A DNA stretch of 64,000 bases from a virus. Lineage: Duplodnaviria; Heunggongvirae; Uroviricota; Caudoviricetes. Shown piece by piece: positions 1 to 49,723 of the stretch. Each line of letters opens with the position of its first letter. Position 1 is the stretch's first letter. The notes below the pieces were generated by a model that saw only the letters and a list, made by a program, of their open reading frames with translations, was not told where the DNA came from and did no database searches. Location: the IMG/VR virus record IMGVR_UViG_3300033692_000022; one strand, 5' to 3'. A program made the position numbers and the translations under genes.

Positions 1-4
1 AAAC

Positions 5-2392: not shown

Positions 2393-2396
2393 TAAA

Positions 2397-3263: not shown

Positions 3264-3272
3264 GTGAAGTAA

Positions 3273-3707: not shown

Positions 3708-3720
3708 AAGGAGGAAGAAA

Positions 3721-4539: not shown

Positions 4540-4634
4540 TTTTAGAATAGATGAAAATTATTAGGGAAATAGGGTAAATCACTGTCAAAAAGACCCTTAA
4601 AACAGGTATTATATATATAGAGGTACTTTTAATA

Positions 4635-6035: not shown

Positions 6036-6040
6036 CATAG

Positions 6041-10666: not shown

Positions 10667-10678
10667 GGAGGGAAGTAG

Positions 10679-11464
10679 ATGACAGAATCTTTTAAGAAAG
10701 AAATTGAAGACGGAAAATACAGATTAAAGATTGGAAAGCAGGTTCCAGAAGACGATGTTAATATATGTTATCTTGATACCCCTCCTTTAAAATCTACCGA
10801 GAATGTGTATCTTACTGATCTGTCCGAAGGGATAGCAGAAAACAGCTGGGGCGCAAGCAGCAAAGAAAGAACAATGTATTCTGGAGAAGATGGTAAGTTA
10901 TATAATGAATCATTTACAGTAGACAGTGTACCAACTGAAGATGTGCTTGTAACAGATATCTATATGGATCAAGATAACCTTAATGGCCCACTATATTATA
11001 AATACAACCTCTTATATGAACACAGAGACTACACCACAGAGGTTACAGACAATATCAACATACTAAAAGAAGATGGGTCAAAAGTAAGTAAGGAAAGATA
11101 CAAAATTGAATACACCAAAACAGCAGAGGCGACTTACGAGGTCACTCTCTTTTTGTCGTTTAACTCAGATGAAAATAACACATACAGAGTAGAGTACGAC
11201 GCCTTAAATTTCGACAAAATAGTTAAAAGAGACCATACTGAAATACTTAATGCTGAAAAGATATTTAAAGAAACATCTATCAGTGAGGTAAGAGACCATA
11301 GTAATATAGGTAAGAAAATATACGCCAAGAAGGTAGACCAGGAAACAAACGGTTATAATATTTATGTTCCAGTTAAATCTTCAGAGACAGAAGGATCACT
11401 TCACAATAAAGAGATAAATGCTGACCTTCCATTACCATTTAAGTATGAGCAGTTCATTTTGTAA
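10679..11464 (+). CDS. N-terminal segment of a split vWA-domain structural protein (continues in the −1 frame at 11449)
   Basis: 261-aa ORF ending FIL*. The downstream vWA beta-1/MIDAS motif begins in the −1 frame with no start codon (see finding). Confidence 0.5.
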   Translation: MTESFKKEIEDGKYRLKIGKQVPEDDVNICYLDTPPLKSTENVYLTDLSEGIAENSWGASSKERTMYSGEDGKLYNESFTVDSVPTEDVLVTDIYMDQDNLNGPLYYKYNLLYEHRDYTTEVTDNINILKEDGSKVSKERYKIEYTKTAEATYEVTLFLSFNSDENNTYRVEYDALNFDKIVKRDHTEILNAEKIFKETSISEVRDHSNIGKKIYAKKVDQETNGYNIYVPVKSSETEGSLHNKEINADLPLPFKYEQFIL

Positions 11465-13407: not shown

Positions 13408-13810
13408 AAAGGAGGATTCAATGCCTAAAAGCGACTATCCAAACAATATAGATAGATTCCCTAAAGCGATAGCAAATTCTGATGGGGTGGTCGATTTAAC
13501 CCCTGAAAACTTAAATAAAATACAGGAAGCTATAATGTCAGTACAAAATGAGTTAGGGGTAGAACCAAGTAAAGATAAAGAAGATGTCAGGTCAGTGCTC
13601 GAAAATATAATAGATACTAAAGTAACTAAAGGCACTCCGATGAATCTGAATATGGAGTTAGTTGAAGATGAGAACGGAGATCAGGTTATAGATTTATCAT
13701 TTTCATACGTAGACAACAAAAATTTAGAGTATTTTATTCTGGAAGTATGGGATGAAGAACGACAAAAATACGTACCCTATGATAATAAATTAGGGGTAAT
13801 AAGAAAGTAG
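13391..13810 (+). CDS. Hypothetical virion protein
   Basis: 139-aa ORF with ribosome-binding site AAGGAGGATTCAATG. No recognisable motif. Confidence 0.3.
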   Translation: MITSSRKEDSMPKSDYPNNIDRFPKAIANSDGVVDLTPENLNKIQEAIMSVQNELGVEPSKDKEDVRSVLENIIDTKVTKGTPMNLNMELVEDENGDQVIDLSFSYVDNKNLEYFILEVWDEERQKYVPYDNKLGVIRK

Positions 13811-13818
13811 GTGCTTAC

Positions 13819-14241
13819 ATGGAAGATTTAACTATTAAAAATCTGGATGCTAAAAAAATAAGGTTAAAATTTGGTGATGAAGCTATAGTAGCAACCAGGA
13901 AAAAATTAAATACAAAGCATGTAGGTGCCAAAAGGGTACGCATAAGAGCAGTAATCAATGGAGACAAAAAAGAATTTTGTTATTTTGGGAGGTTCAAACT
14001 CCCTGTAAAGGATAAAAACAAAGTTAGAATCAAAGGCAACAATGGTCAGTGGGTTGAAGGAAAAACGATCAACCTGCTCAAACCACCTACTATATCTTCT
14101 TCTACAGTAAGAAAACCATATTCTCCAAATCTTCAAGTGGAGGTGATTAATACTCCAATAAGGCCAGACACCCTATCTGTTTATAATGAAAAAGTATTGC
14201 AGCACCCCAGAAAAATAGAAACAAGTACCAAAAAAATATAA
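13819..14241 (+). CDS. Hypothetical basic virion protein
   Basis: 140-aa ORF, Lys/Arg-rich, with a TACATGG start context. Confidence 0.3.
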   Translation: MEDLTIKNLDAKKIRLKFGDEAIVATRKKLNTKHVGAKRVRIRAVINGDKKEFCYFGRFKLPVKDKNKVRIKGNNGQWVEGKTINLLKPPTISSSTVRKPYSPNLQVEVINTPIRPDTLSVYNEKVLQHPRKIETSTKKI

Positions 14242-14253
14242 GGAGTTGGTAAT

Positions 14254-15459
14254 ATGCCAAAAAGAACAAAATTAGTATTTGATAGAAACAGTGATGACAC
14301 ACAAAAGTACAATGTCTACAGAGGCAACCAGACAGGAGTTACAAGTTCTTCTGAGCTTGTAATGGAAATTTCCCAGCCAGCAGCACAGTCTGTTATTAAA
14401 GATGTAGTTGGAGAAACTCTTAGTGCAGACGCAGAATTTTTAGTCTATACAGCTGGTCACAAAAATATAATAAACGATGGAACAAATTATCCAGTTACAG
14501 TTTATGTTAATGGGACAGAACAAACAACAGGATTCACCATTAACTATTTACTCGGTAAAGTTACATTTGATGTAGCTTTAACAGTAAATGATGTAATTAC
14601 AATGGATTACAGTTATGACGCGGTAGAGGTTTTAGATGATGACGGTACACAGACTAATGTAACATTCTTAGGAACAGTAGCACAAGACTTAGCTGCTCCA
14701 GATATTCCTGCAAACCCAGGCATAGTTGGAGACGACGCCAATAACAAAGCGATAGTATCATGGGATGGAGTATTAGCAGATAACGGAAGTCAGTACTTTT
14801 ACAAAGTAGAAGCAGAAGATGAGGTAGGAAATAAATCTACATTAACTGCAGAAGTAGCAGCAGTATTAACTGAGGGACTTCATGCAAACCCTTATGTTCT
14901 TGAGAAATCAGAAGACGGAGGAAACACCTGGAGTATAGTAGGAGAATTTAGTACTACTTCCTATGAGGAGACAGGAGTAGATACTACTGCACCAGATGGA
15001 GTGGCTTCTTTAGTATCTACAGTTACAGAAGTTGGAGATCCATTAAAACCAGCTGTTCAGCTTACATGGCAAAACCCTGCTGATGACAATGAAACAATGT
15101 CTCTGACTTATAGAGTTAAATCACAGGATGCTAATGGGAATGTTTCTAGTCCAGGAGCTGCAGTTGGACCGGTTCCAGTATCAACAGGACTTAAAAGAGT
15201 ATTCATTAAGCGTAAGGTAGATGACGGAACTTACCCAACTAATAACGATACCTCTCTTGTAGTATTCGATTCTACAGATTTCACAAATCAATCTTTTGTT
15301 GATTTAGATGTAGCAGAAGATACAATATACAACTACTCAGTTTTTGTTGAAGATAATGCAGCGAACGTATCGGTTGCGGCTACAGTTCAGGCTTCAGTTG
15401 GAGACTTCACTGCTCCTGAAACAGTAACTGGATTAGCAGCTGAGGAAGTAACTATATAA
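14254..15459 (+). CDS. FN3/Ig-like repeat structural protein, possibly an abundant tail or decoration protein
   Basis: It carries several fibronectin-III-like modules (QYFYKVEAEDEVGNKSTL; LTYRVKSQDANGNVSSPG). A strong GC hairpin terminator follows, and its N-terminus is paralogous to the next gene. Ribosome-binding site AAGGAGTTGGTAATATG. Confidence 0.4.
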   Translation: MPKRTKLVFDRNSDDTQKYNVYRGNQTGVTSSSELVMEISQPAAQSVIKDVVGETLSADAEFLVYTAGHKNIINDGTNYPVTVYVNGTEQTTGFTINYLLGKVTFDVALTVNDVITMDYSYDAVEVLDDDGTQTNVTFLGTVAQDLAAPDIPANPGIVGDDANNKAIVSWDGVLADNGSQYFYKVEAEDEVGNKSTLTAEVAAVLTEGLHANPYVLEKSEDGGNTWSIVGEFSTTSYEETGVDTTAPDGVASLVSTVTEVGDPLKPAVQLTWQNPADDNETMSLTYRVKSQDANGNVSSPGAAVGPVPVSTGLKRVFIKRKVDDGTYPTNNDTSLVVFDSTDFTNQSFVDLDVAEDTIYNYSVFVEDNAANVSVAATVQASVGDFTAPETVTGLAAEEVTI

Positions 15460-15472
15460 TACTAAATAAATA

Positions 15473-15492
15473 GGCGGGGGCTTCCCCGCCTT
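15473..15492 (+). terminator. Rho-independent-like terminator hairpin (GGCGGGG-gctt-CCCCGCC)
   Basis: A 7–8 bp all-GC stem directly after the stop of the FN3-repeat gene, followed by a short TT. Confidence 0.5.
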
Positions 15493-15515
15493 AAGATACA
15501 TAAAGGAGTGATAAA

Positions 15516-16055
15516 ATGCCACTAGGTATAAGAATTTCATGGAATAAAAACAATGATGACACAGTAGAATACGGAGTCTGGAGGAGAACAGAGTCAACAG
15601 AACTCTCAGAAATAACAAGAGTGCCTCAACCTACAGATCAAACTAGCCCATCTTATAACGATGAAAATATAGATATAGCGGATCCAACAGCGCCTGGTAT
15701 TACAATAAATAGACCAACGACCACAAGTGCAACTGTAGAGATAACAACAGTATCTACAGATGCAGCAAATCCTGTTTATTACTATTCAATAAAATCATAT
15801 GATGAGGCCGGCAACAGCTCACCATTGTGTCCAGAGGTAAGTCTGCAGCCTTCAAATGCAATAGATAGATATGAATGGACACTAATAAATGATGCAGATT
15901 CAAGCACAGTAGACAGTGGAGTAATAGACCCACTTAATCCAGTATCAGCAGAGACAACACTAACAGCTGGAGAAACTTATCATTACGAAGTTAAAGCTGT
16001 AGATCTTGACGGAAACGAAAGTACATTAACTTCATCCGAGCCATTTACAGTATAA
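15516..16055 (+). CDS. FN3-like structural protein, paralog of the 14254 gene N-terminus
   Basis: ISWNKNNDDTVEYGVWRR aligns with FDRNSDDTQKYNVYRG of the upstream gene. YYYSIKSYDEAGNSSPL is an FN3-like strand motif. Confidence 0.4.
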   Translation: MPLGIRISWNKNNDDTVEYGVWRRTESTELSEITRVPQPTDQTSPSYNDENIDIADPTAPGITINRPTTTSATVEITTVSTDAANPVYYYSIKSYDEAGNSSPLCPEVSLQPSNAIDRYEWTLINDADSSTVDSGVIDPLNPVSAETTLTAGETYHYEVKAVDLDGNESTLTSSEPFTV

Positions 16056-16069
16056 GAGAGGTGAAATAA

Positions 16070-16615
16070 TTGACTACAGAATTTGAAAGACACTATGATA
16101 ATATAGGAGAAATTATAGATGCTCAAGACGTCAATGAGCTGCAAGATGTAATAAATATCAATGAACAAAATATCCAGATGTTAAGAGATGTTGATTTCGA
16201 AGATTTTTCCCTTTGGCTACTTAAAAACAGGGAGGAATTCAATCGTTTATGGATAGATACATTCAATGACAAGACTAAGATAGATGAAGTTGAAAGCTCA
16301 AAATTAATATACCTACCTAAAGATAGAATGGTAAAAGTCAGGAGAGATCAGGATTTTGCAGAGCTTTATTCTAAAGCCTATAATGATGATGAAAATATAA
16401 ATAGAGCTATCCTGCTAACACAGACCGCGGTGCATAATAGTGAAGATTTAATAAAATTTCAAATATCTATTAATGGTATGTCTTTTGAGGATATACAACC
16501 TAACGAGTTATTCGAGCCTGATAATATAGGTAATAGTTTTAAGTTAAAAGCGCTGTTTAACAAAGATAGTGAGAAAGGACCAGAGCTCTACAGATGGGCT
16601 TTGCTCTGGGGATAA
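16070..16615 (+). CDS. Hypothetical protein (TTG start)
   Basis: 181-aa ORF with GAGGTGAAATAATTG ribosome-binding site spacing. Confidence 0.3.
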   Translation: MTTEFERHYDNIGEIIDAQDVNELQDVININEQNIQMLRDVDFEDFSLWLLKNREEFNRLWIDTFNDKTKIDEVESSKLIYLPKDRMVKVRRDQDFAELYSKAYNDDENINRAILLTQTAVHNSEDLIKFQISINGMSFEDIQPNELFEPDNIGNSFKLKALFNKDSEKGPELYRWALLWG

Positions 16616-16638
16616 TATATTAAGGAAGGAGTGAAGGA

Positions 16639-17529
16639 ATGCCTCGGATACAAAAACTTATAGATGGTACATTTAAAAAAGTTGACAATAAAAGAGAAAG
16701 AGAACTACATGAAAAAATCGACCAGGAGATATTAGAAAGAATATCTGAAGATGATCGGATAGAGGATAAATTCACTAAAATAACAAATGATTTAGAGATA
16801 GATATAGATAATGTAGAAGAAGCACTTAACCAATTTATAATTGAACAAAATAATATAAATGATGAACTTAAAGATGAAATAGATACAGAAAGAAGTCAAA
16901 GACTTGAGGCAGATGACACACTCCAGTCCAATATAGATTCTGAAGAGAATGCTCGTAAATCAGAAGATCAAGCAATAAGGAATGCGATACAGAACGAAGC
17001 AGAAGAAAGAGCCTACGAAGACCAAAAACTTCATAATAAAATAGATGATGAGATATATGACAGAGAACAGGCAGATATAGAACTCAATGAAGTTATCAAC
17101 ACTGAAAGGTCCGAAAGAATAGAAGCTATAAACGATCTCGATTCCAGGCTAAGGCAGGAGATTGTTGATAGAGAAGACGCTGATAATTCTTTAGAGAAAA
17201 AAATAGAGCGCGAGACAAACGAAAGAAAACTTGATGTTAGAATCCTTAATCATAGAACAGATGAAGATACCATTCTTACAAATATGATAATGGATCTTGA
17301 CAGTGAGCTCCAATCTGAGACTAATGCAAGAGAAGCAGAAGACCAAGCACTGCATGCTAAGATAAACCAAGAAATAGCCGATAGAGAAAGTGATGTCTCA
17401 ACTCTTACAACAAATCTCGACAATGAAATACAAACTAGAGTGTCTGAAGTTAATAGACTTGATCAGAGAATAGATGATCATACTGATTCCAACAACTCAG
17501 ATCCGACAATAATCTACAGACTCAAATAG
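16639..17529 (+). CDS. Tail fiber coiled-coil repeat protein, N-terminal part of a split gene
   Basis: Acidic heptad-like repeats (LQSNIDSEENARKSEDQAIRNAIQNEAEERAYEDQ...). The same repeat continues in the −1 frame from 17487. Confidence 0.5.
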   Translation: MPRIQKLIDGTFKKVDNKRERELHEKIDQEILERISEDDRIEDKFTKITNDLEIDIDNVEEALNQFIIEQNNINDELKDEIDTERSQRLEADDTLQSNIDSEENARKSEDQAIRNAIQNEAEERAYEDQKLHNKIDDEIYDREQADIELNEVINTERSERIEAINDLDSRLRQEIVDREDADNSLEKKIERETNERKLDVRILNHRTDEDTILTNMIMDLDSELQSETNAREAEDQALHAKINQEIADRESDVSTLTTNLDNEIQTRVSEVNRLDQRIDDHTDSNNSDPTIIYRLK

Positions 17530-19064
17530 ATGAACTTGATACTATGCTATCGGATGAAGAAACTACAAGGTTTAATGCCGATAAGGCCTTGAGGGATGAC
17601 CTTGACGCTGAAGAGGCAGCAAGAATAGCCGGGGACAACAACCTACAGAACACAATAGACCAGTCAATAGATAATCTTCTGGCCAGAGAATTCTACGGGG
17701 TCGCAGAAGAGACACTCGGAACAGTAACTACTACAACATATGACTTAAATACATCTCAGGAAATAGTACAGGATGTAAGATATTTTGTAGTAATGAATAA
17801 TGACGGCACAGAGGTTATTGGAGATAGCGGCAGTCCAGTTAGTGTTGTAGACATATCTAATAAAACTATCACTTTTAGTGAAACTCCTAATCAAGATGTT
17901 GTTGTTCAGTTCGCAATCAAAAAAACATTAGGCACACTGCCTGCGGACGCACTAATAACTTATGATACCGTAGGTACTAAATTAGATGCAGATATTACCG
18001 AAGTTATAGGGGCCGCGTATTATGATGGGCGAAAGAATGTAGCAGATAACTTCTCACTGGATGTAAGAATAGAAAACGAGATAGAAGATAGAACCAACGC
18101 TGATAATTCTCTCCAAAGCAATATAGACTCTGAAGAGGCGGCAAGAATAGCAGCTGATAATACACTGCAGGATAATATAGATGCAGAAGAGGCGGCTAGG
18201 ATAGCAGCAGATAACGCCTTAGAGCAGACTATTGAAGACGAGGTACAAACAGCAATCACTCAGCTTCAGGCAGATATAGCGGCGGAAGAACAGGCCAGAA
18301 TAGATGCCGATAATGAACTGCGTAACACTATAGAAAATGAAGTCCAAACTGCAATAACACAAATGGAAGAAGACCTTGCGGCGGAAACAGCAGCCAGACA
18401 GCAGCAGATAGCAGACCTACAGGAACAAATAGATAATGATATACAGATAGCCATTGACCAGATGCAGTCAGATCTACAGGCCGAAAAGACAGCCAGACAA
18501 AATGCCGACGACGCATTACAGGCTCAAATAGATACACTTAATACTGAAGTAGCTTCTAAGTTTGATGACCTATATGATGACTTCTATGCTCACCACCACG
18601 ATTCTCAGTACGTAAATCAAGACGGAGACGAAATGACAGGAGACTTAAGTTTCTCTGCCGGTAAAGGAATAGAGTGGTATGAGAATACTGATGGGGCTGA
18701 AATCAAGTTTAACAGTGATAGCGATAGCGCCCAACAGTCTAATCTTGAGTTTAGAGTAAGAGACAACATGGATGAAGGCTTTAAGTTTATAGCATATAAC
18801 GATGGTGTAGACGTAGACGGCATAGAGCTAATGTATATGAATAAAGATAACTTTGATTATCGCGGCCATGAAATCTGGCATGCAGGAAACGATAGCCACA
18901 ACTCAGGTTTAAATGCAGATATGGTCGACGGAGAACACAAAACAGAAGTTAAAGATAATGCTAGAAAACAAACAAATGAATTGAGATTAGAGACTAGAAC
19001 TTCTGATCCAGCAAATGCTGAGGTGGGTAGAATATGGTTAAGAACAGACTTAGTACCAGAGTAA
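17487..19064 (+). CDS. Tail fiber coiled-coil repeat protein, C-terminal part, ending in a DGDEMTGDL-type fiber tip domain. The frame is open from 17487 and the track ATG is at 17544.
   Basis: Repeats DNSLQSNIDSEEAARIAADNTLQDNIDAEEAARIAADNALEQ are followed by HHHDSQYVNQDGDEMTGDLSF, a motif recurrent in phage fiber distal domains. Confidence 0.5.
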   Translation, partial: FQQLRSDNNLQTQIDELDTMLSDEETTRFNADKALRDDLDAEEAARIAGDNNLQNTIDQSIDNLLAREFYGVAEETLGTVTTTTYDLNTSQEIVQDVRYFVVMNNDGTEVIGDSGSPVSVVDISNKTITFSETPNQDVVVQFAIKKTLGTLPADALITYDTVGTKLDADITEVIGAAYYDGRKNVADNFSLDVRIENEIEDRTNADNSLQSNIDSEEAARIAADNTLQDNIDAEEAARIAADNALEQTIEDEVQTAITQLQADIAAEEQARIDADNELRNTIENEVQTAITQMEEDLAAETAARQQQIADLQEQIDNDIQIAIDQMQSDLQAEKTARQNADDALQAQIDTLNTEVASKFDDLYDDFYAHHHDSQYVNQDGDEMTGDLSFSAGKGIEWYENTDGAEIKFNSDSDSAQQSNLEFRVRDNMDEGFKFIAYNDGVDVDGIELMYMNKDNFDYRGHEIWHAGNDSHNSGLNADMVDGEHKTEVKDNARKQTNELRLETRTSDPANAEVGRIWLRTDLVPE

Positions 19065-19080
19065 TGGAGGTGAATTATAG

Positions 19081-22000
19081 ATGGCAGGACAAAAGTTAGT
19101 ATATGATTACTATAGAGAAAGAAGAGGTAGCTGGTACTGGCTTAGCTCAAATCTAAGAGAATGGCTAAATAGCGACCAGGAAAATGTAGGATATACTAAT
19201 GAACCTCCAAATAGTAGCAACCTAGGTTCTGATAGTTATGCGGATGAAGCCGGATTTTTAACTAACTTTACAACAGCAGAAAAAAATGCTATAGCAGTAA
19301 CAAGACACAGAGGGTATACCAGAGGTGTTGATAGTTCCGTAAAGGATGGTGGGAGTACTGATTTAAACTTTTCTTCGTCTTTTGATACTCCATTTGCTAA
19401 CTATTATTGCTCGGGTGTTGAAGATAATTGGGGCTCTTTTAATTATAAAATTTCAGATGATAAAGTATTTTTATTTTCTCCAGTAGAAATTCACCATTAC
19501 TCACAAAGTAGAAATTTCAACATAAAAAAAGCGCCTTCCCAGTATATAAGAAATAAATATAATATATCTTCAAATTATATAAAGTATACCGTTCAGAATG
19601 GGGAGCACTACGACAGACTTTGCGCAATTAGCGATGAAGGAACATTCTCTTCTACTAACTCTGACTCTACAACAGGAATAGCACCTGCTATACATCTCAA
19701 ACCCGATTATACGTTGGATAGTGGGAAAAAAGTATCAAATTTAAAAGTTGGAGAAGAAGTCGTATTTGGTAATTATGGTGGACACCAAATATCGTGGATA
19801 GTAGTTAATAAAACTCCAGATGACTTTGCATTGCTCTGGTCAAAAGAAGTAATAACTTTAAAAGCATACGATTCTCCTAATGATGACTTCTCCTGGGAGT
19901 ATTCAGACCATATAAATTTCAGCAACTATGATGTAAATATAATTAACGACCTTCAAAAATGGTATCCAACAAATGATAAAACTTTACCGAGACTTTATCT
20001 TCTCAATGAAGACGATCTAAATTCAAGACAAGACGGCGGATGGACCTTAAAATTACAGGCAGAAGATACAGGGTCCGGCATAGAAAAGATAGTATTACCT
20101 GATGGTACCGAAGTTTATGATAACTACGCTGAATATTATATTACTGAAAATAAAAGATATTTCATGCACACTGTAGACAATGCTGGGAATAGAAATAATC
20201 TAACTATTCCAGTAAGTAATATAAACCCACCTTCTTCTGTGGACATCAACTCATCATCTGATGGATGGACTAATTCAGACGTAAATGTAGAGATAAAAGC
20301 ATCTAATGACGTAAATGATTATTATGCAAATGAAATAATAACAAATAGTAGAGACTGGTATGGTCCAGCTTGGCCGAATTCTATATCTTACACTGGAAAA
20401 ACCTTCAGAGTGACAGGTAATATAGAATTAATAGATCACAGCGCAGATTTAGGTAATGTAAGAGCAAATGTGGGTTTTAGATATATAAGAAGATATAATA
20501 AAAACGATGGGTACGACATATCGAATAGTTGGCCCACAATAGAACATTTTTATCTTAGGGATATTAACGGAACACAGGCTAGTTTTGATTTTGAATACAC
20601 AGTACCTGGGGATTATTATAAAGATATAAGGCCATTTTTACAGATTGGAGTAGCACATCATAATCATAATTATACAGTAAAATACACTAATGTTAAATAC
20701 GAATTACTTGATAAAAGTGACTTTGGTATAGATTACATCAAACTACCAAATGGTCAGAAAATATATCAAGACACTTATACAACCACAATCACAGAAGAGG
20801 GAACGTATACTTTTGAGGTTATGGATAATAGAGGCGTAGTTACATCAAGAACTATAGAGGTGCTGATAGAAACTAACCCTCCAGATCTAAATATAAGTCA
20901 GGAAGTAACCAAGAAAACCAATCAAAGTTATGACCTCATTGTAAATGCTTCAGATTCCGAAAGCGGAGTTAAAAGAATACTGCAGCCCAACGGCGAATGG
21001 GTTGAATCTGATTCTTTAAGGTATAATATTTATCAAAATGGAACCTATGAGTTTACAGCAGAAGATAATGCTGGTAATAGAAAAACTAAATCAATAACAG
21101 TATCAAATATAGACAAGACTAGCCCAGTAGACCCCAATATCCATGTAGTTGATAAAGGAGAAAATCACGTAACACTTAATTGGATAGCAGATGATACAGA
21201 GTCAGATATAGATTCAATCAGGTTATATTTCCAAGAATCAGACAGTGATGGTAATCATCTGAAAGATATAGATATCAACGGAGATGGAAACACAGAATAC
21301 GACGTTGATGTTACTGGCCAGGAATCATATACGATTAATGGATTAAATGATTACACATACTACAGATATTATTTAAGAGTGATAGATTCAGTAGACAATG
21401 TAAGAAATGACGGCTATCATACCGTAAGAACTCAAGACACTACGGGGCCAATAGTAGATATAACATCGCACAACGATAATACTAATATCGGATATATCGA
21501 CGGCAATCAACTCACTTTAAGCGGAACAGCAGATGACAATGGAGAGGTTGATAGAGTAATCTTAAACGCTTCGGGCGCAGTCACACTTAATGACTTAGTT
21601 ATAGACGACAGCTCACCAGAAAACTGGAGTTATACAAGATCATATCCCGAAGGTCATACAAGACTAGAAGTTAAAGCAATAGACAAAGCCGGCAACGAAT
21701 CGGATGCCAAGTATATAGAATTTGATGTAGATACTGAAGCTCCTCAGATTGTATGGAATAATCACACAGATAAGAGCTGGCGCAACACTGTACCTGATGT
21801 CCACACTAATAATATAGATATAAACTCTGGTATTAGCACCTCAAAACTAGCAGTAACCTCAAATACAACTAAACCTTCCGACTGGATTAATGACTCCTCA
21901 CCTAGTAACACATACTTCCAAAACACATTAGAAGGAAAACCAGATGGTGAATGGTACTGTCATGTTGAAGTAACAGACAACAACGGCAACAGTACTTATA

Positions 22001-22830
22001 GTTACCAGGGACCATTTAAGATAGACAGAAGTGAGCCTACACATGTGTCACATTCCATATCTGGAGCAGATTATGTAAGAGATAATAATTACTATGTTAA
22101 ACCTAATAGGGAATTTTATATAGAAGTAGAGGGAGAAGAAAACACACTCCTTTCTCATAACTACCTAAATCTAAATGGTGACAACGTTGATATAAGAGCA
22201 TATCAGGTACTATCAGACGAATCATTTAATGAGTACAGAACAGGAAACTATGCTGAGATAATATCGGCTGAGAAGGTAAATTCAACAACTACAAAATTTA
22301 AAGTAAGAATAAAAGATAATGCACCTAACGGATTTATTTTCAATGTAAACGGATGGCACAAAAACGAGGCCGGCACATTAAGCAGATTCACTACTGATAT
22401 AGATATAATAGTAGATGCTAATCCTGCTCAAATGAATGGGTGGGAGATAAAGAACGCACCCTATTTCGATGGCAACACTTATTGGGGTAAACAGGGTGAT
22501 CAGATGACTTTTAACCTCAAGGGCTATGACGACGTAAGCGGGGCAAAAAGAGGTTACATTCAATTAGTTAACAAAGAGACCGGCGACGCCGAACACGCCT
22601 CATACAATAGGGATGAGGGCTATCTCAGCGATTCTAGGGAAGAGCCTAATGTAGATGTAACAACTGGTAGACTAATAAGCAGCGATGATAAAAATATGGA
22701 GATAGAGTTTGATTTTACTCTAGGTAATCAGCCGACAAATTATGACTTATGCTGGTACTGGTACGATAATGTTAAGAACACAATGGATTATACAGATACC
22801 GGCAAAGATATAGGAATAGAAATATCATAG
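19081..22830 (+). CDS. Giant Ig-like/FN3-rich tail fiber (1249 aa), truncated by a frame break
   Basis: It carries three copies of an approximately 90-aa Ig-like module (DSGSGIEKIVLPDGTEV...VDNAGNR; DSESGVKRILQPNGEWV...AEDNAGNRKTKSITV) and an FN3 module with a DINGDG loop. Confidence 0.5.
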   Translation: MAGQKLVYDYYRERRGSWYWLSSNLREWLNSDQENVGYTNEPPNSSNLGSDSYADEAGFLTNFTTAEKNAIAVTRHRGYTRGVDSSVKDGGSTDLNFSSSFDTPFANYYCSGVEDNWGSFNYKISDDKVFLFSPVEIHHYSQSRNFNIKKAPSQYIRNKYNISSNYIKYTVQNGEHYDRLCAISDEGTFSSTNSDSTTGIAPAIHLKPDYTLDSGKKVSNLKVGEEVVFGNYGGHQISWIVVNKTPDDFALLWSKEVITLKAYDSPNDDFSWEYSDHINFSNYDVNIINDLQKWYPTNDKTLPRLYLLNEDDLNSRQDGGWTLKLQAEDTGSGIEKIVLPDGTEVYDNYAEYYITENKRYFMHTVDNAGNRNNLTIPVSNINPPSSVDINSSSDGWTNSDVNVEIKASNDVNDYYANEIITNSRDWYGPAWPNSISYTGKTFRVTGNIELIDHSADLGNVRANVGFRYIRRYNKNDGYDISNSWPTIEHFYLRDINGTQASFDFEYTVPGDYYKDIRPFLQIGVAHHNHNYTVKYTNVKYELLDKSDFGIDYIKLPNGQKIYQDTYTTTITEEGTYTFEVMDNRGVVTSRTIEVLIETNPPDLNISQEVTKKTNQSYDLIVNASDSESGVKRILQPNGEWVESDSLRYNIYQNGTYEFTAEDNAGNRKTKSITVSNIDKTSPVDPNIHVVDKGENHVTLNWIADDTESDIDSIRLYFQESDSDGNHLKDIDINGDGNTEYDVDVTGQESYTINGLNDYTYYRYYLRVIDSVDNVRNDGYHTVRTQDTTGPIVDITSHNDNTNIGYIDGNQLTLSGTADDNGEVDRVILNASGAVTLNDLVIDDSSPENWSYTRSYPEGHTRLEVKAIDKAGNESDAKYIEFDVDTEAPQIVWNNHTDKSWRNTVPDVHTNNIDINSGISTSKLAVTSNTTKPSDWINDSSPSNTYFQNTLEGKPDGEWYCHVEVTDNNGNSTYSYQGPFKIDRSEPTHVSHSISGADYVRDNNYYVKPNREFYIEVEGEENTLLSHNYLNLNGDNVDIRAYQVLSDESFNEYRTGNYAEIISAEKVNSTTTKFKVRIKDNAPNGFIFNVNGWHKNEAGTLSRFTTDIDIIVDANPAQMNGWEIKNAPYFDGNTYWGKQGDQMTFNLKGYDDVSGAKRGYIQLVNKETGDAEHASYNRDEGYLSDSREEPNVDVTTGRLISSDDKNMEIEFDFTLGNQPTNYDLCWYWYDNVKNTMDYTDTGKDIGIEIS

Positions 22831-23369
22831 AGATAGATATTAATGTCGAGGACAGTCAGTCAGGAGTAAAAAGTGTCGAATACAAATTCGACCACAGCAC
22901 TCATTACTCTGGAGACAACTTAAGAACTACTGGTACTCAGGATACCCTCTTTATAGAAGCCCACGGTGAATGGTATCTTCATATAAGAGCAGAGGACAAT
23001 GCCGGGAATGTTGTAAGACAGACATTCGGTCCTTATGTTAATTACTCGGACCCTAAAAGATATATGAAGATCCAGACACCCGGCGGCGAACAGGAAATAC
23101 CACTATATGAACTCAATCAAAGAGTAGACAACAGGCTGAGAATAAAAGCAGCAGATGAAGTGGTATGTATAGGATTAGTCCCACCAGATGATAAGAGGGC
23201 AACAGAAATAAGAGTTAAGATGCCTGAAGCAATATATGCAGTAGAAGGGAACAGAAATGTATTCAGATTCTCAGAGATCGATCCTAACTTAAGTAATGAC
23301 TTTACTCTTGGGGAAGATGAAATAACAATAGATACTCAAAGAGGATTCGACGGTGGAGAATTAGTATAA
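22776..23369 (+). CDS. C-terminal continuation of the 19081 fiber in the −1 frame. It includes a fourth Ig-like module, and there is no start codon before 23064.
   Basis: The frame is open from 22776. It encodes DINVEDSQSGVKSVEYKF...HGEWYLHIRAEDNAGNVVRQTF, the same module as in the upstream ORF, with 290 nt lacking ATG/GTG/TTG. Confidence 0.5.
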   Translation, partial: EHNGLYRYRQRYRNRNIIEIDINVEDSQSGVKSVEYKFDHSTHYSGDNLRTTGTQDTLFIEAHGEWYLHIRAEDNAGNVVRQTFGPYVNYSDPKRYMKIQTPGGEQEIPLYELNQRVDNRLRIKAADEVVCIGLVPPDDKRATEIRVKMPEAIYAVEGNRNVFRFSEIDPNLSNDFTLGEDEITIDTQRGFDGGELV

Positions 23370-23383
23370 ACTAGGAGGCAGAA

Positions 23384-23791
23384 ATGAGTATATTAAATAA
23401 CTTACCCAACTGGAATGCACAGTCAGATAGGGTTGTAGAACCAGATAACGATAAGAAAGCAGCTGGGTGGAGGCTCGGTGAAGAGCCACCTCCTGGTTAC
23501 TTTAACTGGTTCTGGAATCTCGTATCCGATTCATTAAATATTTTAGATACACATAATCACGATGATAGATATTACACCAAAGGTTACTTTGATTCTCACG
23601 ATCATGACAGTTTATATTACAGAAAAGATTACATCGATTCTCACGAGCACGACGACAGATATTACACAAAAAATGATGTTAATAGTATGCTCGGGGCCAC
23701 CTATATTGAAAGCCCAACTGTTGGTAATATATTAGTATCAGACACCGAGCCAACTAATGCAGAAGAAAACGACATATGGATAAAGTTATAA
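23384..23791 (+). CDS. Short tail fiber protein: conserved N-terminal anchor domain plus HxHD-RYY histidine repeats
   Basis: LPNWNAQSDRVVEPDNDKKAAGWRLGEEPPPGYFNWFWNLVSDSLNILDTHNHDDRYYTK is shared with five other fiber genes. It also has repeats SHDHDSLYYRK and SHEHDDRYYTK. Confidence 0.45.
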   Translation: MSILNNLPNWNAQSDRVVEPDNDKKAAGWRLGEEPPPGYFNWFWNLVSDSLNILDTHNHDDRYYTKGYFDSHDHDSLYYRKDYIDSHEHDDRYYTKNDVNSMLGATYIESPTVGNILVSDTEPTNAEENDIWIKL

Positions 23792-23804
23792 AGGAGGCAG
23801 TAAA

Positions 23805-25667
23805 TTGGGATATATAACACCAGATAAATCACCGGGTATATACATGGACCCGATTACTGTCAACTTTAGTGTTGATAGCAGGGTAGTAAATATAGCAGAA
23901 ACTCAGGATGGCAGCAACCCAACAATAGCAAAATATATAGCATATGATAATCTAAACCCACCTAATCCATTCATAGCGACCGTACAGGACGGCAGGGGTA
24001 ATGTTCTGTTCGATGGTGGATTTCCAAAATACTACAATATGAGAGTAAATTCTTCCTGGACTTCATTTTCTCAACTTAATGATACATTTAAGTATTTTCA
24101 TAATGCTTTAGATTGGATAGCAAACGATGATAAGGTATCAGAAGGTAATCGTAAGATGTTATTTCTTGGTGATTCAAACCCTGGAGAATCTTACAACATC
24201 AAACAAACAGGCGGCAGTGATTTTAAAACATCTATAGAAACAATGTGTACTACTGGTAACTGGGACCCTACCTATCTGACAAGAGAAGATTTCAGCGGCG
24301 GCCAAATCGATTTAAGTTATGCTGATTTAGAGCCTTATGTTGGCGTATTCCTGATGTCGAGTAGGCATACATCTAATAGATATATAACTCAATCAACTGT
24401 AGATAATCTATTGGCTTTTAGAGAAGCCGGTAACGGTATGTTTATCATAACAGACCATGGTTCTAGTGCAGACAACGGTTTTTATAGAACTGCTAATTTC
24501 ATAGCTGAAGAACTTGGGGCTCAATTTTTAGGATATTATAATAGATCACCTGTTAATGTTGGTTTCTTAATAGATAACTACGGTAATCATCCTTTATGGT
24601 CTGGTATGGATAGGAGTGGATATGTCCACGCTGGAAGTTCGGAGTCTGAAATAATTGTAGATGAAACACCAACTACTACAACAGCAGACTCTCTTACTGT
24701 AAGTGAACAGGGTTTTAAGACAGCAAGATTCTTAATAGAGCTCGATACAGGAGAAAAGGTATTTGAAACATATTCCTACGGATTGAATGCTGGAGACCCT
24801 ATTACTTTCAATAACGATATTCAAAATGGAGAGCTTAAAATAGGATTCGGCAGAACTATAGATTTAGATTTCGATATAAATTTAGGAATAATGGACAGCG
24901 CTTCAGGGCTAGTAAGAAGGAACAGCGATGTAATAGCTCAGTGGTCAAAAGACAGCGGCGGAATGACAACAGAATGGTTTACCGAAAGTGGTAACAGTAC
25001 CATTAAGGTAGATGATGGGGACTCAATAAAGGTAGCCTTACAGTCTCCAGTCTATTATGCAGAGTCTTTTACTATTAATGCAGCACCTCGAACTTCGACA
25101 GCCATCGACATAAACCTCGAAGATAAGACAAGTAAATACATTTCACTAAGCTGGACCTATGATAGCAGGATAGAACTAGACCATCTCGAGCTTATCTTTT
25201 TAAAAAGCGACGGATCACAGATAGATATAGATGATGACGGTACATTAGAAGATAGGTTAAACCTCAATAAAAGCCTATCATTTAGTGCAAGTAATCTTGA
25301 GCCGGCAACAGAATATAAGTTCAAACTAAGAGTATATGATGTTAACGGCGGCAGTTTAGACAGCAGCTATTATACAGCTAAAACAAACGGAGTACTTAAG
25401 ATACTTGTCGATAATACCTACAAGATACCACGCAACGCTCTAGTAAAAAAAGGAACAGGCTGGTCGAATTTTACAACTCAAATAAAGAATAACGGAGAGT
25501 TTGAGGAAATCGACATAGGGCCTACGATACAAACTTCCATGTTTACTACTGACATGTGGACAGAGTTTTCAAAAGAGGTGCGGGCAATCCACCTGTTAGA
25601 TAATGACTCTGATCTATATGGCAGCAGCCTTGATATTATAGATGTAATAGACTCCTATGGAATATAG
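23805..25667 (+). CDS. Tail protein paralog A, part 1: N-terminal hydrolase-like domain (GDS / TDHG motifs), FN3 module, beta-rich region
   Basis: TTG start after ribosome-binding site AAGGAGGCAG. It is approximately 75% identical over its N-terminal 260 aa to the 27431 ORF. It contains LFLGDSNPGES and FIITDHGSSADNGF. Confidence 0.45.
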   Translation: MGYITPDKSPGIYMDPITVNFSVDSRVVNIAETQDGSNPTIAKYIAYDNLNPPNPFIATVQDGRGNVLFDGGFPKYYNMRVNSSWTSFSQLNDTFKYFHNALDWIANDDKVSEGNRKMLFLGDSNPGESYNIKQTGGSDFKTSIETMCTTGNWDPTYLTREDFSGGQIDLSYADLEPYVGVFLMSSRHTSNRYITQSTVDNLLAFREAGNGMFIITDHGSSADNGFYRTANFIAEELGAQFLGYYNRSPVNVGFLIDNYGNHPLWSGMDRSGYVHAGSSESEIIVDETPTTTTADSLTVSEQGFKTARFLIELDTGEKVFETYSYGLNAGDPITFNNDIQNGELKIGFGRTIDLDFDINLGIMDSASGLVRRNSDVIAQWSKDSGGMTTEWFTESGNSTIKVDDGDSIKVALQSPVYYAESFTINAAPRTSTAIDINLEDKTSKYISLSWTYDSRIELDHLELIFLKSDGSQIDIDDDGTLEDRLNLNKSLSFSASNLEPATEYKFKLRVYDVNGGSLDSSYYTAKTNGVLKILVDNTYKIPRNALVKKGTGWSNFTTQIKNNGEFEEIDIGPTIQTSMFTTDMWTEFSKEVRAIHLLDNDSDLYGSSLDIIDVIDSYGI

Positions 25668-26824
25668 GACACTGCAGACTTAATATAACAGAACCACCAC
25701 CTCTTGTAGCAAACGATGACTCATTTGAGATATACGAGGGTGGATATATAAATATTTATAAATCTCAGATGTTAGACAATGATTACGATGAAAGCGGGAA
25801 CGAACCAATCGAAATCATAGGTTTCTCTGGTGTTACTGGAGGAACACTAACCGAGTACGACAACTACATTAGATTCGATGTAACAAGTCAGGTAGGAGAA
25901 CCTGCAGAGTTTAAATATACAATAACTAACGCAGTAGGCATAGAAACTACAGCCTATGTAAAGTTAATTATTAAAAAGGGACTTATTGCAGGAATAGATA
26001 ATACTGATTCATATAAAGATATCGAAAAGACCATTCCTATTTCAACCCTCGACATAACAGACATTTCAGAAAACCCACCAATTAAGTTAATAGGTGTTAC
26101 AGATCCAAGCGGCGGAACAGTAACCTTTGACGATTATAACATCTATCTTACCTCAACAGCTGCGGCTGGCAGTAATATTTCATTCAATTATACAGTGCGA
26201 AATGATATTAATCTTACAGATACAGGAACTGTTAATGTGAAAGTTATGCCTACTCCTCAGATACAAACAGCTGATGATACATTCGAAGTTACCCAGGGTA
26301 ATCAGATATTGATTTCTAAATCTGGACTCACCAATAATGATACAGATGAAGGAGGATATTACCCACTAACAGTAACCAATGTATACAACGTAACAGGTGG
26401 AACACTTGATGTAAGCGGAGATACTATTACATTTACTTCTACAAGTCTTGCGGGAGAAGCCGCAGGTTTTAAGTATGATGTAGAAAACACTCAGGGCGTA
26501 ACTCAGACAGGAAATGTATATATCACTGTTAATCCACTTCCAGCCGTAGACTCCTTAATTTTTAGCGACGCACAAACAACCCAGGATAAGCTAAACGAAT
26601 ATACTCCTGATAGTATGCAGGACGTATTTACAAGCTGGTATAGATTCTCTCATCAAGGCGGGAATATACAGGTCAACCCTCTTACTATGTATGACGGCAC
26701 TACTCAATACGATTTATATAGCGAAAATATATGGAAGTACCACGCCGATGAAGATAGAATAGCCTGTCAGCAGAATACTCCTCAGCATGTTGGCTTTCTT
26801 CGCCGGGTGGAGATGATGACATGA
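25634..26824 (+). CDS. Tail protein paralog A, part 2, continuing part 1 in the −1 frame. The track ATG is at 25769.
   Basis: The frame is open from 25634 and encodes NIGHCRLNITEPPPLVANDDSFEIYEGG. This aligns to YIGHCEIKTSQTPNLVAMDDSFEVYEGG of the 28206 ORF, with no start codon upstream of 25769. Cadherin-like or Ig-like repeats follow. Confidence 0.45.
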   Translation, partial: YYRCNRLLWNIGHCRLNITEPPPLVANDDSFEIYEGGYINIYKSQMLDNDYDESGNEPIEIIGFSGVTGGTLTEYDNYIRFDVTSQVGEPAEFKYTITNAVGIETTAYVKLIIKKGLIAGIDNTDSYKDIEKTIPISTLDITDISENPPIKLIGVTDPSGGTVTFDDYNIYLTSTAAAGSNISFNYTVRNDINLTDTGTVNVKVMPTPQIQTADDTFEVTQGNQILISKSGLTNNDTDEGGYYPLTVTNVYNVTGGTLDVSGDTITFTSTSLAGEAAGFKYDVENTQGVTQTGNVYITVNPLPAVDSLIFSDAQTTQDKLNEYTPDSMQDVFTSWYRFSHQGGNIQVNPLTMYDGTTQYDLYSENIWKYHADEDRIACQQNTPQHVGFLRRVEMMT

Positions 26825-27411
26825 TCGGTATAGTTTTAGCCTATACTGAAACTTCTAATCCTTATGATGAACATACACTCATAGCTCAAAGAACTCACGG
26901 GGGGATAGGCGGAGGCGAATGGGCTATAATTTATAATAAATCAAAATCTGGGGATAGTGTGATAATAAACGATAGCATATCTGGTGATGATATAAGTGGG
27001 GGTTGGAGTGGAGATCGCACAAGAGTAAGAGCTGAGAGAGAAGGAAATATCATAAAAGTATATGCTTCTCCAATGAATTCAACTACTCTTGATCCAAATT
27101 CAATGTTCGAAATAGATTTAAGCTCAGATAGTAGACTCCACAAATTTATGGACGGAGGATCATACGGGTATTGTTGTTTATCACAGGACAGATCAACATT
27201 TACCGATATACAGTTCGAAGGTGGATTAGACAAATCCATAATCTTAGATATTGAAAATAATATAGTCTGGGAATATAGCTTCGAACAAAGCCAATGGATA
27301 GATACAGGAAGAACTATTCAGGACGAAATAGGATATGTAAGAGAGGTATATAATCCAAACACTGGTGATAGATACCTTGTTAAAGAAAACGAAATAATCA
27401 AAATGACTTAA
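26758..27411 (+). CDS. Tail protein paralog A, part 3, continuing part 2 in the −1 frame. The track ATG is at 26821.
   Basis: Upstream in the same frame, SPGGDDDMIGIVLAYTE aligns with SSNGDNDVIGLVIAFDRD of the 28206 ORF. The C-terminal YVREVYNPNTGDRYLVKENEIIKMT is nearly identical to the paralog B C-terminus. Confidence 0.45.
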   Translation, partial: NSLSAEYSSACWLSSPGGDDDMIGIVLAYTETSNPYDEHTLIAQRTHGGIGGGEWAIIYNKSKSGDSVIINDSISGDDISGGWSGDRTRVRAEREGNIIKVYASPMNSTTLDPNSMFEIDLSSDSRLHKFMDGGSYGYCCLSQDRSTFTDIQFEGGLDKSIILDIENNIVWEYSFEQSQWIDTGRTIQDEIGYVREVYNPNTGDRYLVKENEIIKMT

Positions 27412-27430
27412 GGAAAAGGAGGGGAATTTT

Positions 27431-28228
27431 ATGGGATACGTAATACCAGATAAACAACCTGGAATATATAAAGAACCATTTACTGTAGATTTTAATGTAG
27501 ATAGTAGTGTATCAAATGTAGTAGACACTCAAGATGGAAGCAATCCGACCATAGCAAAGTATATAGCATATGACAATTTAAACCCGCCAAATCCATTTAT
27601 AGCAACAGTTCAAGATGGTAAGGGTAATGTATTATTCGATGGTGGCTTCCCTAAGTACTATAATCACAAATGTGATACATCTTGGAGTTCGTTTTCCGAC
27701 CTTAATAACACCTTTAAGTATTTTTATAATGCTTTGAATTGGATAGCAAATGAAGAAAAAGTAGCTGAAGGGAATCGCAAAATACTTTTTATAGGAGATG
27801 CTATTCCAGGCGAGCCTTACAATATAAAAGAAACTGGCGGTAGTGATTTTAAAACATCAATAGAAACAATATGTAGAGTTGGGAATTGGAACCCTACTTA
27901 TAAGATAAGGACTGATTTTCCTAATAATCAAATAGATTTAAGCTATACAGACTTAGAACCTTATGTAGCGGTATTTCTAATGTCAAGTAGACACACTAGC
28001 ACTAAACATATCACAGATAGTACAGTAAATAACATGCTTGCCTTTAGAGAAGCAGGCAACGGTATATTCATGATTACCGATCATGGATCAAGTGCAGATA
28101 ATGGTTTTTATAAAACTGCTAATTACATTGCAGAAGAACTTGGTGCACACTTCATTGGTGATTATGATAGAACTCCAGTTAACGTAGGCTACCTTATCGA
28201 TAATTATGGCAACCATCCATTGTGGTGA
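27431..28228 (+). CDS. Tail protein paralog B, part 1 (hydrolase-like N-terminal domain)
   Basis: Ribosome-binding site AAGGAGGGGAATTTTATG. It matches paralog A residues 1–265 closely (IAKYIAYDNLNPPNPFIATVQDG identical). It ends at NYGNHPLW*, where paralog A continues. Confidence 0.45.
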   Translation: MGYVIPDKQPGIYKEPFTVDFNVDSSVSNVVDTQDGSNPTIAKYIAYDNLNPPNPFIATVQDGKGNVLFDGGFPKYYNHKCDTSWSSFSDLNNTFKYFYNALNWIANEEKVAEGNRKILFIGDAIPGEPYNIKETGGSDFKTSIETICRVGNWNPTYKIRTDFPNNQIDLSYTDLEPYVAVFLMSSRHTSTKHITDSTVNNMLAFREAGNGIFMITDHGSSADNGFYKTANYIAEELGAHFIGDYDRTPVNVGYLIDNYGNHPLW

Positions 28229-31200
28229 GACTCCTATATCTACCAGCACAGACCCTCTGGTAGTTGATCAGTCAGGCTATAAAACAGCAAGGTTTTTGAT
28301 AGAGCTAGACAATGGAGAAACTAAATTCGAAAGTTATTCTTATGGGTTAAATACTGAAGAGCCGATTGTATTTAATCACAGCCTAATAGATAATAAATTG
28401 GATTTAGGACTTAAGCGAGATTTCAATTTAGATTTCAGTATAGTACTAGGAGTGATGGACAGCGCCAACGGGTTTATTAAAAGAAATAACGAAGTAGTTG
28501 GCCAGTGGTCGAAAGACCAGACTTCTTTTGATAAGACCTGGTTTACCGATAGCGGCACCAACAATATTAAAGTAGAACTAGGAGATTTAATAGAAATAAC
28601 ATTAGAAGATCCTTTGTATTACAGTAAATCAATGACAATAGATGGTAAAGAGCCTATCTTAAATACGTCTCCGCAATCTAGTGGTAACTATGTGGCTCTT
28701 GAATGGGATGTTAGTGATGGCTCACAGGATTTCACATATATGCTTCACAAAAAGAAGTCCTCAGATAGTGTATTCCAAACTATACCAGCTAAAGAAAACC
28801 TTAAGATACTTAATGTATATCCAGAAAATGGGGTAAGTGAAACAATAACCTTCACAAACTGGAAAGGAGAAACTACGACAACCTTAAAATCTGCCTCCCT
28901 AAAGAAATGGATGGAAGAACCAAATAACACACATTCAAAAGGATGGGGTAAAGGCCTTATAGATGTCGATATAGTTTCATTACTGGACTTTAATAATTCA
29001 CCAGACAGTTATCTTAAGACTAATGGCAGTTATGACTATGATGTTGTAGTATTTGGAACCTGGGATTGTAATGGAGATTGCTCAAGCGGTGGAGATACTA
29101 GCGCAGCTGCGGCAGCAAGCATAGAAACTTTCATCAAGACGGGCAGGGGTGTTCTACTCGGTCATGATACATTACACAAAAACCATCCTAATTTCAATAG
29201 TCTTGTTAGTTATTTTAATGTTACTTTAGATACAACGGGTATAGGATATACAGAACTTGAAATAACTAAAAAAGGATTACTCACCAACTATCCCTGGTAT
29301 ATAGGAGATATCGGAGATAAACTATCTATTCCCATGGCACATGTAACCAATCAGATGGCGCATGGAGATGTATGGTTTAAATTTACCGATGACACCTGGG
29401 GTGGTTATGACTATGTTGCTAATGACCTAACAAGAAATTTTTATCTTACTACATGGAATAATACTGCCTTAATTCAGACCGGTCACAGTGATGCTCAGGC
29501 GACTTCTGATGAACAGAAACTACTTGCTAACACACTATTTTATCTAGGTCAGGTTACAACCGCAACTAGCTGGAATGATATGTCCGGGCAGGATCTCGCC
29601 GGGCCAGAAAAACCAGTCATAAATAACGTAAAAATAAACCAAGACACTAAGAAAATAGAAATAGATTACAGTTCTCCAAATGATAATGGAACCACATATG
29701 ACTACTACGTTACTGCAAAAGGTAGTGAAGGATTAACAACCCAAACCAACACTTCTACTTGTACTATAAAAACAAATATTGCCGGTTATTCAATATTGGT
29801 AGATGACAGTCCAAGTAGTGTGCCCAATAACGATATAAACACTACAGAAACTTCATATGATTTGGAACATGAAAAATATGATAATTTCTATGTCCATATT
29901 GCAGCAGTAGATAATGCAGGAAACATATCAAAAACCTCACACTATCATTATACAGACAATACCGCTCCTGATTTAGATTTAACACAAAAAATATCAGAGT
30001 GGACACCTACAGAAGAAACTATAGTTGCTGAAGCTACTGATATAGGGTCTGGGGTTAGCAGAATACAACTCCCTAACGGTGAGTGGGTTAATCAATCAAA
30101 AGTAGAATTTAAAGCCACATCAAATGGTGATTATACTTTCACTGCAGAAGATTATACCGGCAACAGAACAACAAAGACTATTACCGTATACGGAGTTGGA
30201 CCAGAAAGTAATCCATTAATAAATTTAAAAATAACAGAAGTTACAAGTAGTACCATAGACCTTAGATGGGAAATATCAGAAACCATAGATGTAGACTATA
30301 TAAATTTAATGTTCCTCAAAAAAGACGGAGAAGAGTTTAAAAATATAGATATTAATGGTGACGGCTCTATAGATGATTATCTAAATATAAACGATGCAAC
30401 TTCATACAGTGTTAATAAACTCGAGCCCAGAACAGAATATTACTTTAAAATAATAGTCTATGACAATGACCAAACTCAGATGAGCAGTGCTTTATTGTCG
30501 GCAAAAACAAAAGGGCTAATAAAGGTAAATAAGAATGGCAGTTTCAAAATAGCAAAAGATGTACTCGTTAAAAAGAATAATGACTGGGAGTCCTTTAGCG
30601 GTAAAATAAAGAAGGACGGTAAACAGGTTAAGGTAGATATAGGTACTACAATTAAAACAAATCTATACGAAGAAGATGTCTGGCCGGGCTTCGAAAAAGA
30701 AATAAGGGCCATTCACTTATTAGAAGATGATAGTGATATATATGGAGATACTGATCTTAATATTGTCGATATCAAAAACGTATACGGAGGGGATGCCGAA
30801 TTCGTAGGAAGCGATTCTCTGGTAGAAACATCAGTAAACTTTAGAAATAATGCTGAGATAGGAGAAACTGCTGGTTTTACTTATGTAGTAGAAAACTCCA
30901 GAGGTAGAAGATATATCGGGCATTGTGAAATAAAGACATCTCAAACTCCAAACTTAGTAGCAATGGATGACTCGTTTGAAGTTTATGAAGGCGGATTTGT
31001 TGATATATATAAGTCGCAAATACTAGCCAATGATTATGATACAGAAAATAATACTCCAATAGAAATAGTAGATGTATTCGATGCAAAAGGTGGGACTCCT
31101 ACTGTATATGATAATTATATTAGATTCCAGGTGAATGATGAAATTGGAGATCCTGCTCAATTTAGATATACAATCAGAAACTCAATAGGTCAAGAAACAA

Positions 31201-49712: not shown

Positions 49713-49723
49713 GAGGTGAAAAG

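Follow-up and report, generated by a model that had tools for sequence, protein, structure and literature searches.

Ig-like domains added to the C terminus of phage proteins by programmed frameshifting have been described for the capsid of T3, for Lactobacillus phage A2, and for the Listeria phages A118, A500, and PSA (PMC5009743). The locus described here resembles these cases in having an out-of-frame Ig-like module immediately after the stop codon of a structural gene, but it has no slippery site, the module is in frame in an intact allele, and the linker in front of it has been removed. It falls outside this class of frameshift-appended extensions. A second point of comparison is provided by genes of metagenomic contigs split through local assembly defects or short deletions, where a pair of neighboring ORFs, each in its own frame, corresponds to a single ORF of near-identical genomes, no start signal precedes the second piece, and there are several breaks per contig, all of which also apply here. 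However, usual split genes derive from homopolymer errors of 1 to 2 nt, while the gaps found here are clean (no overlap and no Ns), measure 43 to 124 nt, and number eight within 17 kb. Regarding the protein, its modules are like those of OmpL47-type and other bacterial Ig-like repeat proteins (NF047446; Pfam Big_13, Big_7, and DUF7743), which begin with D-x-SG-V/I and carry D-x-A-G-N near the end, although in this case they belong to a predicted phage virion protein with a DUF6273 N terminus and an orphan C-terminal domain. The series of very large, repeat-rich structural genes around it recalls jumbo phages (0305phi8-36, phiKZ-like phages, and Salicola phage SCTP-2), but, unlike their baseplate and fiber modules, the 1,464-aa protein has neither a PHROG match nor a phage homolog at the tblastn level.

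In the 64,000-nt stretch of phage DNA analyzed here (the window), an ORF of 1,249 aa (19081..22830, plus strand) is terminated by a TAG at 22828 to 22830. The −1 frame is free of stops from 22776 to a TAA at 23367 to 23369, and it reads ...NIIEIDINVEDSQSGVKSVEYKFDH...HGEWYLHIRAEDNAGNVVRQTFGPYV...; translated from 22824, it gives IIEIDINVEDSQSGVKSVEYKFDH...HGEWYLHIRAEDNAGNVVRQTFGPYV..., followed by ca. 100 more residues. The earliest ATG, GTG, or TTG in this frame is located at 23064. A first-pass annotation had already described this frame as open from 22776, lacking a start before 23064, and encoding an Ig-like module akin to those upstream, and our translation, the ORF list, and the homology searches bore out the three observations. 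The open −1 frame is non-random, since several lines of evidence converge. Stops take up 123 and 165 of 1,249 codons (ca. 10% and 13%) in the two noncoding frames of the upstream gene, rates from which the chance of 96 stop-free codons before 23064 can be calculated as ca. 5 × 10^-5. In blastp, the −1-frame peptide matches the upstream ORF at residues 912 to 986 (32% identity, E = 1e-6) and, more weakly, at residues 618 to 666 (E = 0.004). The NCBIfam model NF047446 (OmpL47-type beta-barrel domain) matches residues 6 to 63 of the 22824-to-23366 translation (E = 1.1e-7, 32.1 bits for the window fragment alone), and an exhaustive HMMER search of a 1.84-billion-protein library retrieved 520 large multi-repeat proteins. 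The core of this OmpL47-type Ig-like beta module, as delimited by NF047446 and blastp, lies at 22839..23012 (+) and follows the scheme D-S-Q-SG-V ... GEWY ... AEDNAGN.

The ATG at 23064..23066 (+), from which a 101-aa ORF (P0001) was called, is a miscalled start. There is no Shine-Dalgarno sequence upstream of it (ggaccctaaaagatatATG), unlike most genes in the window, which have AGGAGG-like sites 5 to 10 nt upstream, and the 234-nt “intergenic” stretch that precedes it is at odds with the tight gene packing of the region.

The intact counterpart of this locus was found in the 90%-identity cluster of the 1,249-aa product, whose second member, P0152, is a protein of 1,464 aa encoded in the ENA contig k141_29228 (202,621 bp). 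P0152 and the window protein have the same sequence as far as ...TDTGKDIGI, after which P0152 continues with DTAPPFVDVGPYVTMRRPN, and then with IIEIDINVEDSQSGV..., which is the text of the window's −1 frame. The ENA DNA was retrieved through the neighboring 135-aa gene and then walked base by base against the window. Along this walk, 52 nt (CACTGCTCCTCCATTTGTAGATGTTGGGCCTTATGTAACAATGAGAAGGCCT) turned out to be absent from the window between 22820 and 22821 (+), shifting the frame by −1, and the junction reads GGAATAGA|AATATCAT. The TAG at 22828..22830 (+) is a stop only through this gap, as the intact gene reads ...AAT ATC ATA GAG.... The 5' part of the split gene (19081..22820, +) corresponds to residues 1 to 1247 of the intact protein and contains, according to the ORF list and Pfam, the DUF6273, several OmpL47-type/Big Ig-like modules, and the FN3 domain. 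The 3' part (22821..23369, +, −1 frame) contains the last OmpL47-type module and the orphan C-terminal domain of ca. 120 aa and runs to the genuine stop codon, the TAA at 23367 to 23369. The Met codon at 23064 is internal in P0152, and DIGIDTAPPFVDVGPYVTMR is a predicted peptide of the single 1,464-aa product. The same gene has a second gap, at 23276..23277 (+), where 54 nt are absent in frame; these account for the 18 additional residues (YYGRSVFNTYHGMGYGQF) that P0152 carries ahead of IDPNLSND.

The same 52 nt are present in L002/L020 (ENA ERZ27245728) and in L004 (JGI 3300033746). The JGI contig (Ga0373123_459, L004) is uninterrupted across the junction, includes both the 52- and the 54-nt segments, and differs from the ENA contig (L002) by two SNPs, so it represents an independent assembly. 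These two are the assemblies that span 22821, and both carry the 52-nt segment, while the 54-nt segment was found in four samples (L002, L003, L004, and L005), with two Logan assemblies among the carriers. Furthermore, the missing 52 nt encode (I)DTAPPFVDVGPYVTMRRP(N), an ID-T-A-P-P linker between modules. An I/V-D-x-x-x-P linker follows every other module end (D-x-A/N-G-N) of the protein, with the versions NINPPS, IETNPPD, NIDKTSP, VDTEAPQ, and IDRSEPT, and GIDTAPP at this point. As these 52 nt encode a linker found after all the other modules, the long form is the native one. The earlier proposal of one gene running from 19081 to 23369 was thus right as to the single gene, P0152 and Ga0373123_459 both being uninterrupted, although the length of ca. 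1,430 aa suggested for it fell short of the 1,464 aa of the intact form. Neither the TAG at 22828 nor the ATG at 23064 is a true boundary of the gene, and the 1,249- and 101-aa “genes” need to be fused into one and restored to the 1,464-aa form. In the phage as it is seen in other samples, the frame break is no biological feature.

Given the precedents among phages (PMC5009743), we considered programmed −1 ribosomal frameshifting, or another type of recoding near 22815 to 22828, through which some of the protein molecules would gain the Ig-like module. The switch of frame does take place a few codons from the 0-frame stop, and there is a hairpin-rich stretch at 22855 to 22916 (folding z = −2.7). 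However, no slippery heptamer X XXY YYZ was found in any phase between 22770 and 22836, and the longest homopolymer run in the overlap (22776 to 22830) is AAA. The structure begins ca. 27 nt past the stop, compared to the 5 to 9 nt expected for a stimulatory structure, and its z value is unexceptional, since 2 of the 47 windows taken from this gene reach z ≤ −2.5. The break is not conserved either, since otherwise identical contigs encode a continuous 1,464-aa ORF, and the junction removes half of a conserved linker. Moreover, seven other genes or sites of the contig have the same type of gap. Recoding is therefore very improbable, and the frame break as a recoding signal is effectively refuted by the intact allele. 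A bypass of the T4 gene 60 type, from the TCA at 22825 to the TCA at 22860, was also discarded because the module homology (IEIDINVEDSQ) spans the would-be gap up to the stop. For other phages with an out-of-frame Ig-like module after a structural gene, near-identical genomes should be compared before recoding is claimed.

The first-pass annotation had also suggested that one A was missing in gaaata. The arithmetic is correct, and one added A does give a continuous frame (GIENIIEIDIN...), but a single-base sequencing error fails as the cause. The intact allele differs by a unique segment of 52 nt instead of 1 nt, the AAA at 22820 to 22822 arises at the deletion junction itself (GA|AATATC), and there is not one single-base difference over 64 kb. 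We regard such an error as the least probable of all the explanations, with hardly any chance of being correct. In contrast, it is practically certain that 52 nt are missing from the window, that the ORF is intact elsewhere, and that frameshift signals are absent.

The comparison was then extended to the whole window, with a reference put together from four overlapping stretches of the ENA contig k141_29228. Not one base was substituted over the 64 kb, and the window lacked eight segments: 43 nt (gap followed by window base 11449), 78 nt (17253), 52 nt (17502), 52 nt (22821), 54 nt (23277), 124 nt (25662), 46 nt (26794), and 62 nt (28227). All of them fall between 11449 and 28227, i.e., within 17 of the 64 kb, and the stretches 1 to 11448 and 28228 to 64000 are identical to the reference. 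Microhomology at the gap ends was of 0 to 1 nt, with none at 22820|22821, and in six cases the length is not divisible by 3. The gaps disrupt five large structural genes for which intact versions exist in other assemblies, with products of 923 (VWA), 851, 1,464, 1,258, and 1,775 aa, and the fragments downstream of the gaps have no Shine-Dalgarno sites. At least four large structural genes neighboring the one studied here call for the same repair. As the break at 22820|22821 is one of eight similar gaps, it reflects a defect of the contig as a whole and not a property of the fiber gene.

None of the gap junctions appeared in other assemblies, all of which contain the respective segment wherever they cover a gap site. 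Nine truncated products (1,249, 101, 261, 641, 506, 351, 196, 265, and 1,496 aa) are each found on one contig only, the 134,508-bp JGI/IMG record, while two further fragments, as delimited here, had no exact sequence match in the collection. The intact 923-, 1,258/1,245-, and 1,775-aa forms are found in several contigs from JGI, ENA, and Logan. The gene calls of the truncated proteins in JGI/IMG run directly across the junctions, and so there is no run of Ns at these points in the public record.

Several causes for the gaps were examined and rejected. Repeats collapsed by the assembler were ruled out because the segments are unique sequence. Structure was inconsistent among the segments, contrary to what hairpins skipped by a polymerase or a reverse transcriptase would require, and splice-like excision would have no boundary consensus and would destroy ORFs. 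The GC content of the segments (0.33 to 0.48, versus 0.36 to 0.41 in the flanks) does not fit a dropout of GC extremes, and strain-variable patches were discarded since the SNPs of other strains fall outside the segments. No motif common to the eight segments was found.

Two main origins can be considered for the gaps. In the reading that we favor, a single gene has been split by gaps that are artefacts of the assembly or of the record and not of biological origin, for which, as a whole, we estimate a probability of roughly 0.7. Some stretches would have failed to assemble, and their flanks would then have been joined without filler, leaving eight clean gaps. At 22820|22821, the linker IDTAPPFVDVGPYVTMRRP would have been lost with the 52 nt, without any recoding being involved. 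In the gapped allele a ribosome would read GIEIS followed by the stop, leaving the remainder of the gene in the −1 frame without a start codon or a ribosome-binding site. We favor a defect in the construction of the contig because there are eight clean deletions and no substitutions, no sign of selection for frame, five essential-looking genes hit, and a single contig affected. As no Ns are present at the junctions, a scaffold gap from which the Ns were removed requires an additional step, and we know of no standard assembler behavior that joins flanks without overlap. That the gaps are artefacts is inferred from the assemblies.

The alternative is that the eight gaps are real deletions and that the contig represents a defective variant, e.g., a decaying or inactivated prophage, in which break-and-rejoin events had disabled the tail-fiber and baseplate genes, making the 1,249-aa product a genuine truncation. 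This would agree with public gene calls that cross clean junctions without Ns, with the confinement of the gaps to one functional module (11449 to 28227), and with the presence of an integrase (52845 to 53762), thanks to which a noninfective copy could persist in the host. In addition, the end of L004 coincides exactly with the left edge of the 46-nt segment (26793|26794), as expected for a branch of an assembly graph containing both alleles; the chance of an end coinciding with a gap boundary was estimated at ca. 0.005. However, the same contig spans three other gap sites unbroken and with their segments intact. The junctions appear in no other assembly or protein record, the gap ends lack microhomology, and five essential-looking structural genes would have been lost simultaneously. 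Eight deletions beside no substitutions in 64 kb also seem unlike spontaneous mutation. Altogether, we consider real deletions unlikely, at well under even odds, and an artefact remains the most likely of the two. A more specific version, in which a lysogen suffered targeted breaks followed by end joining (e.g., self-targeting by a nuclease or CRISPR, plus NHEJ) that selectively inactivated the tail-fiber/baseplate module of a temperate jumbo-size phage and left the other 47 kb untouched, seems improbable. If the gaps were real, the contig would document a host-recognition module of a phage inactivated, unusually, by multiple hits.

The clustering of the gaps and the end of L004 at 26793|26794 could mean that deletion-bearing molecules do exist in some samples, and, under targeted breakage, this end would mark coexisting alleles.

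Coming back to the intact protein, the 1,464 aa comprise an N-terminal DUF6273 (residues 11 to 207), an FN3 domain (684 to 768), ca. seven Ig-like modules ending in D-x-A/N-G-N plus the I/V-D-x-x-x-P linker, and the C-terminal domain of ca. 120 aa, for which no relatives were detectable. Against NF047446, P0152 scored 59.1 bits (cutoff, 40) over three stretches, the best of which (1271 to 1328) is the module that lies in the −1 frame of the window. Sequence searches with the 1,464-aa protein gave no match among solved structures or PHROGs, and blastn and tblastn against 50,697 phage records revealed no relatives beyond short Ig-like stretches. Likewise, pattern scans with the −1-frame peptide found no relatives in IMG/VR, JGI metagenome contigs, or GTDB genomes, and an exact 39-mer was not found in IMG/VR. 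Exact-product look-ups of the 101- and 1,249-aa proteins returned no contig, and a word-indexed protein search with the hand-fused C terminus returned nothing, this search apparently not reporting the clusters of the window itself either. A single-sequence AlphaFold2 model of the intact C terminus placed strands only in the module, with a mean pLDDT of 40.

The 1,464-aa gene is flanked by genes for a sheath initiator, Baseplate_J, and Gp10_C, together with neighbors that have tail-fiber PHROG matches, and on the basis of this gene context its product is predicted to be a fiber or a baseplate-peripheral virion protein. The phage is large, its contig measuring at least 202 kb, carries the integrase mentioned above, is probably temperate, and has ribosome-binding sites of the Firmicute type. 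Neighboring genes match ORF164 of Bacillus phage 0305phi8-36 and the virion protein family phrog_11065 of the phiKZ group.

Compared with otherwise identical contigs, the window carries six more clean gaps beyond the 1464-aa gene, at 11448/11449 (43 nt absent), 17252/17253 (78 nt), 17501/17502 (52 nt), 25661/25662 (124 nt), 26793/26794 (46 nt), and 28226/28227 (62 nt). Four genes are cut into pieces by these gaps: a 923-aa VWA-domain protein (now 10679-11464 and 11482-13407), an 851-aa coiled-coil, fiber-like protein (16639-17529 and 17544-19064), a 1258-aa protein, which appears in three pieces (23805-25667, 25769-26824, and 26821-27411), and a 1775-aa protein (27431-28228 and 28206-32696).

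An independent contig, JGI 3300033746 Ga0373123_459 (6,313 nt), terminates exactly at the base preceding the 46-nt segment absent from the window at 26793/26794. This contig end could represent a branch of the assembly graph, i.e., reads holding both alleles, or alternatively it could be a reproducible assembly break.

The neighboring 1258-aa and 1775-aa proteins are paralogs that have an N-terminal domain in common (window 23806-24953 versus 27432-28226), and the nucleotide identity between the 5' parts of their genes ranges from ca. 71% (1,161 nt) to 74% (795 nt). This domain belongs to phrog_11065, a family of virion structural proteins found elsewhere in phiKZ-like Pseudomonas and Ralstonia jumbo phages and in Salicola phage SCTP-2. 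In the interrupted VWA-domain protein, the C-terminal half (11482-13407) showed 31% identity to ORF164, a virion structural protein of the Bacillus jumbo phage 0305phi8-36, with a second match in Moorella phage MTATph1.

A local RNA hairpin region is located at 22855-22916, where the 1464-aa gene encodes its final Ig-like module. The fold of 22800-22920 had a minimum free energy of -23.9 kcal/mol (z = -2.7), nothing out of the ordinary for this gene, and the hairpin was discarded as a frameshift stimulator because its distance to the frame break is too great.

Other genes detected were a tyrosine integrase encoded on the opposite (minus) strand (52845-53762), an amidase-holin lysis cassette (49152-50032), a sigma-70-like factor (60879-61670), and a PD-(D/E)XK/Cas4-like nuclease (61747-62472). 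The phage looks temperate, despite a contig size of at least 202 kb.
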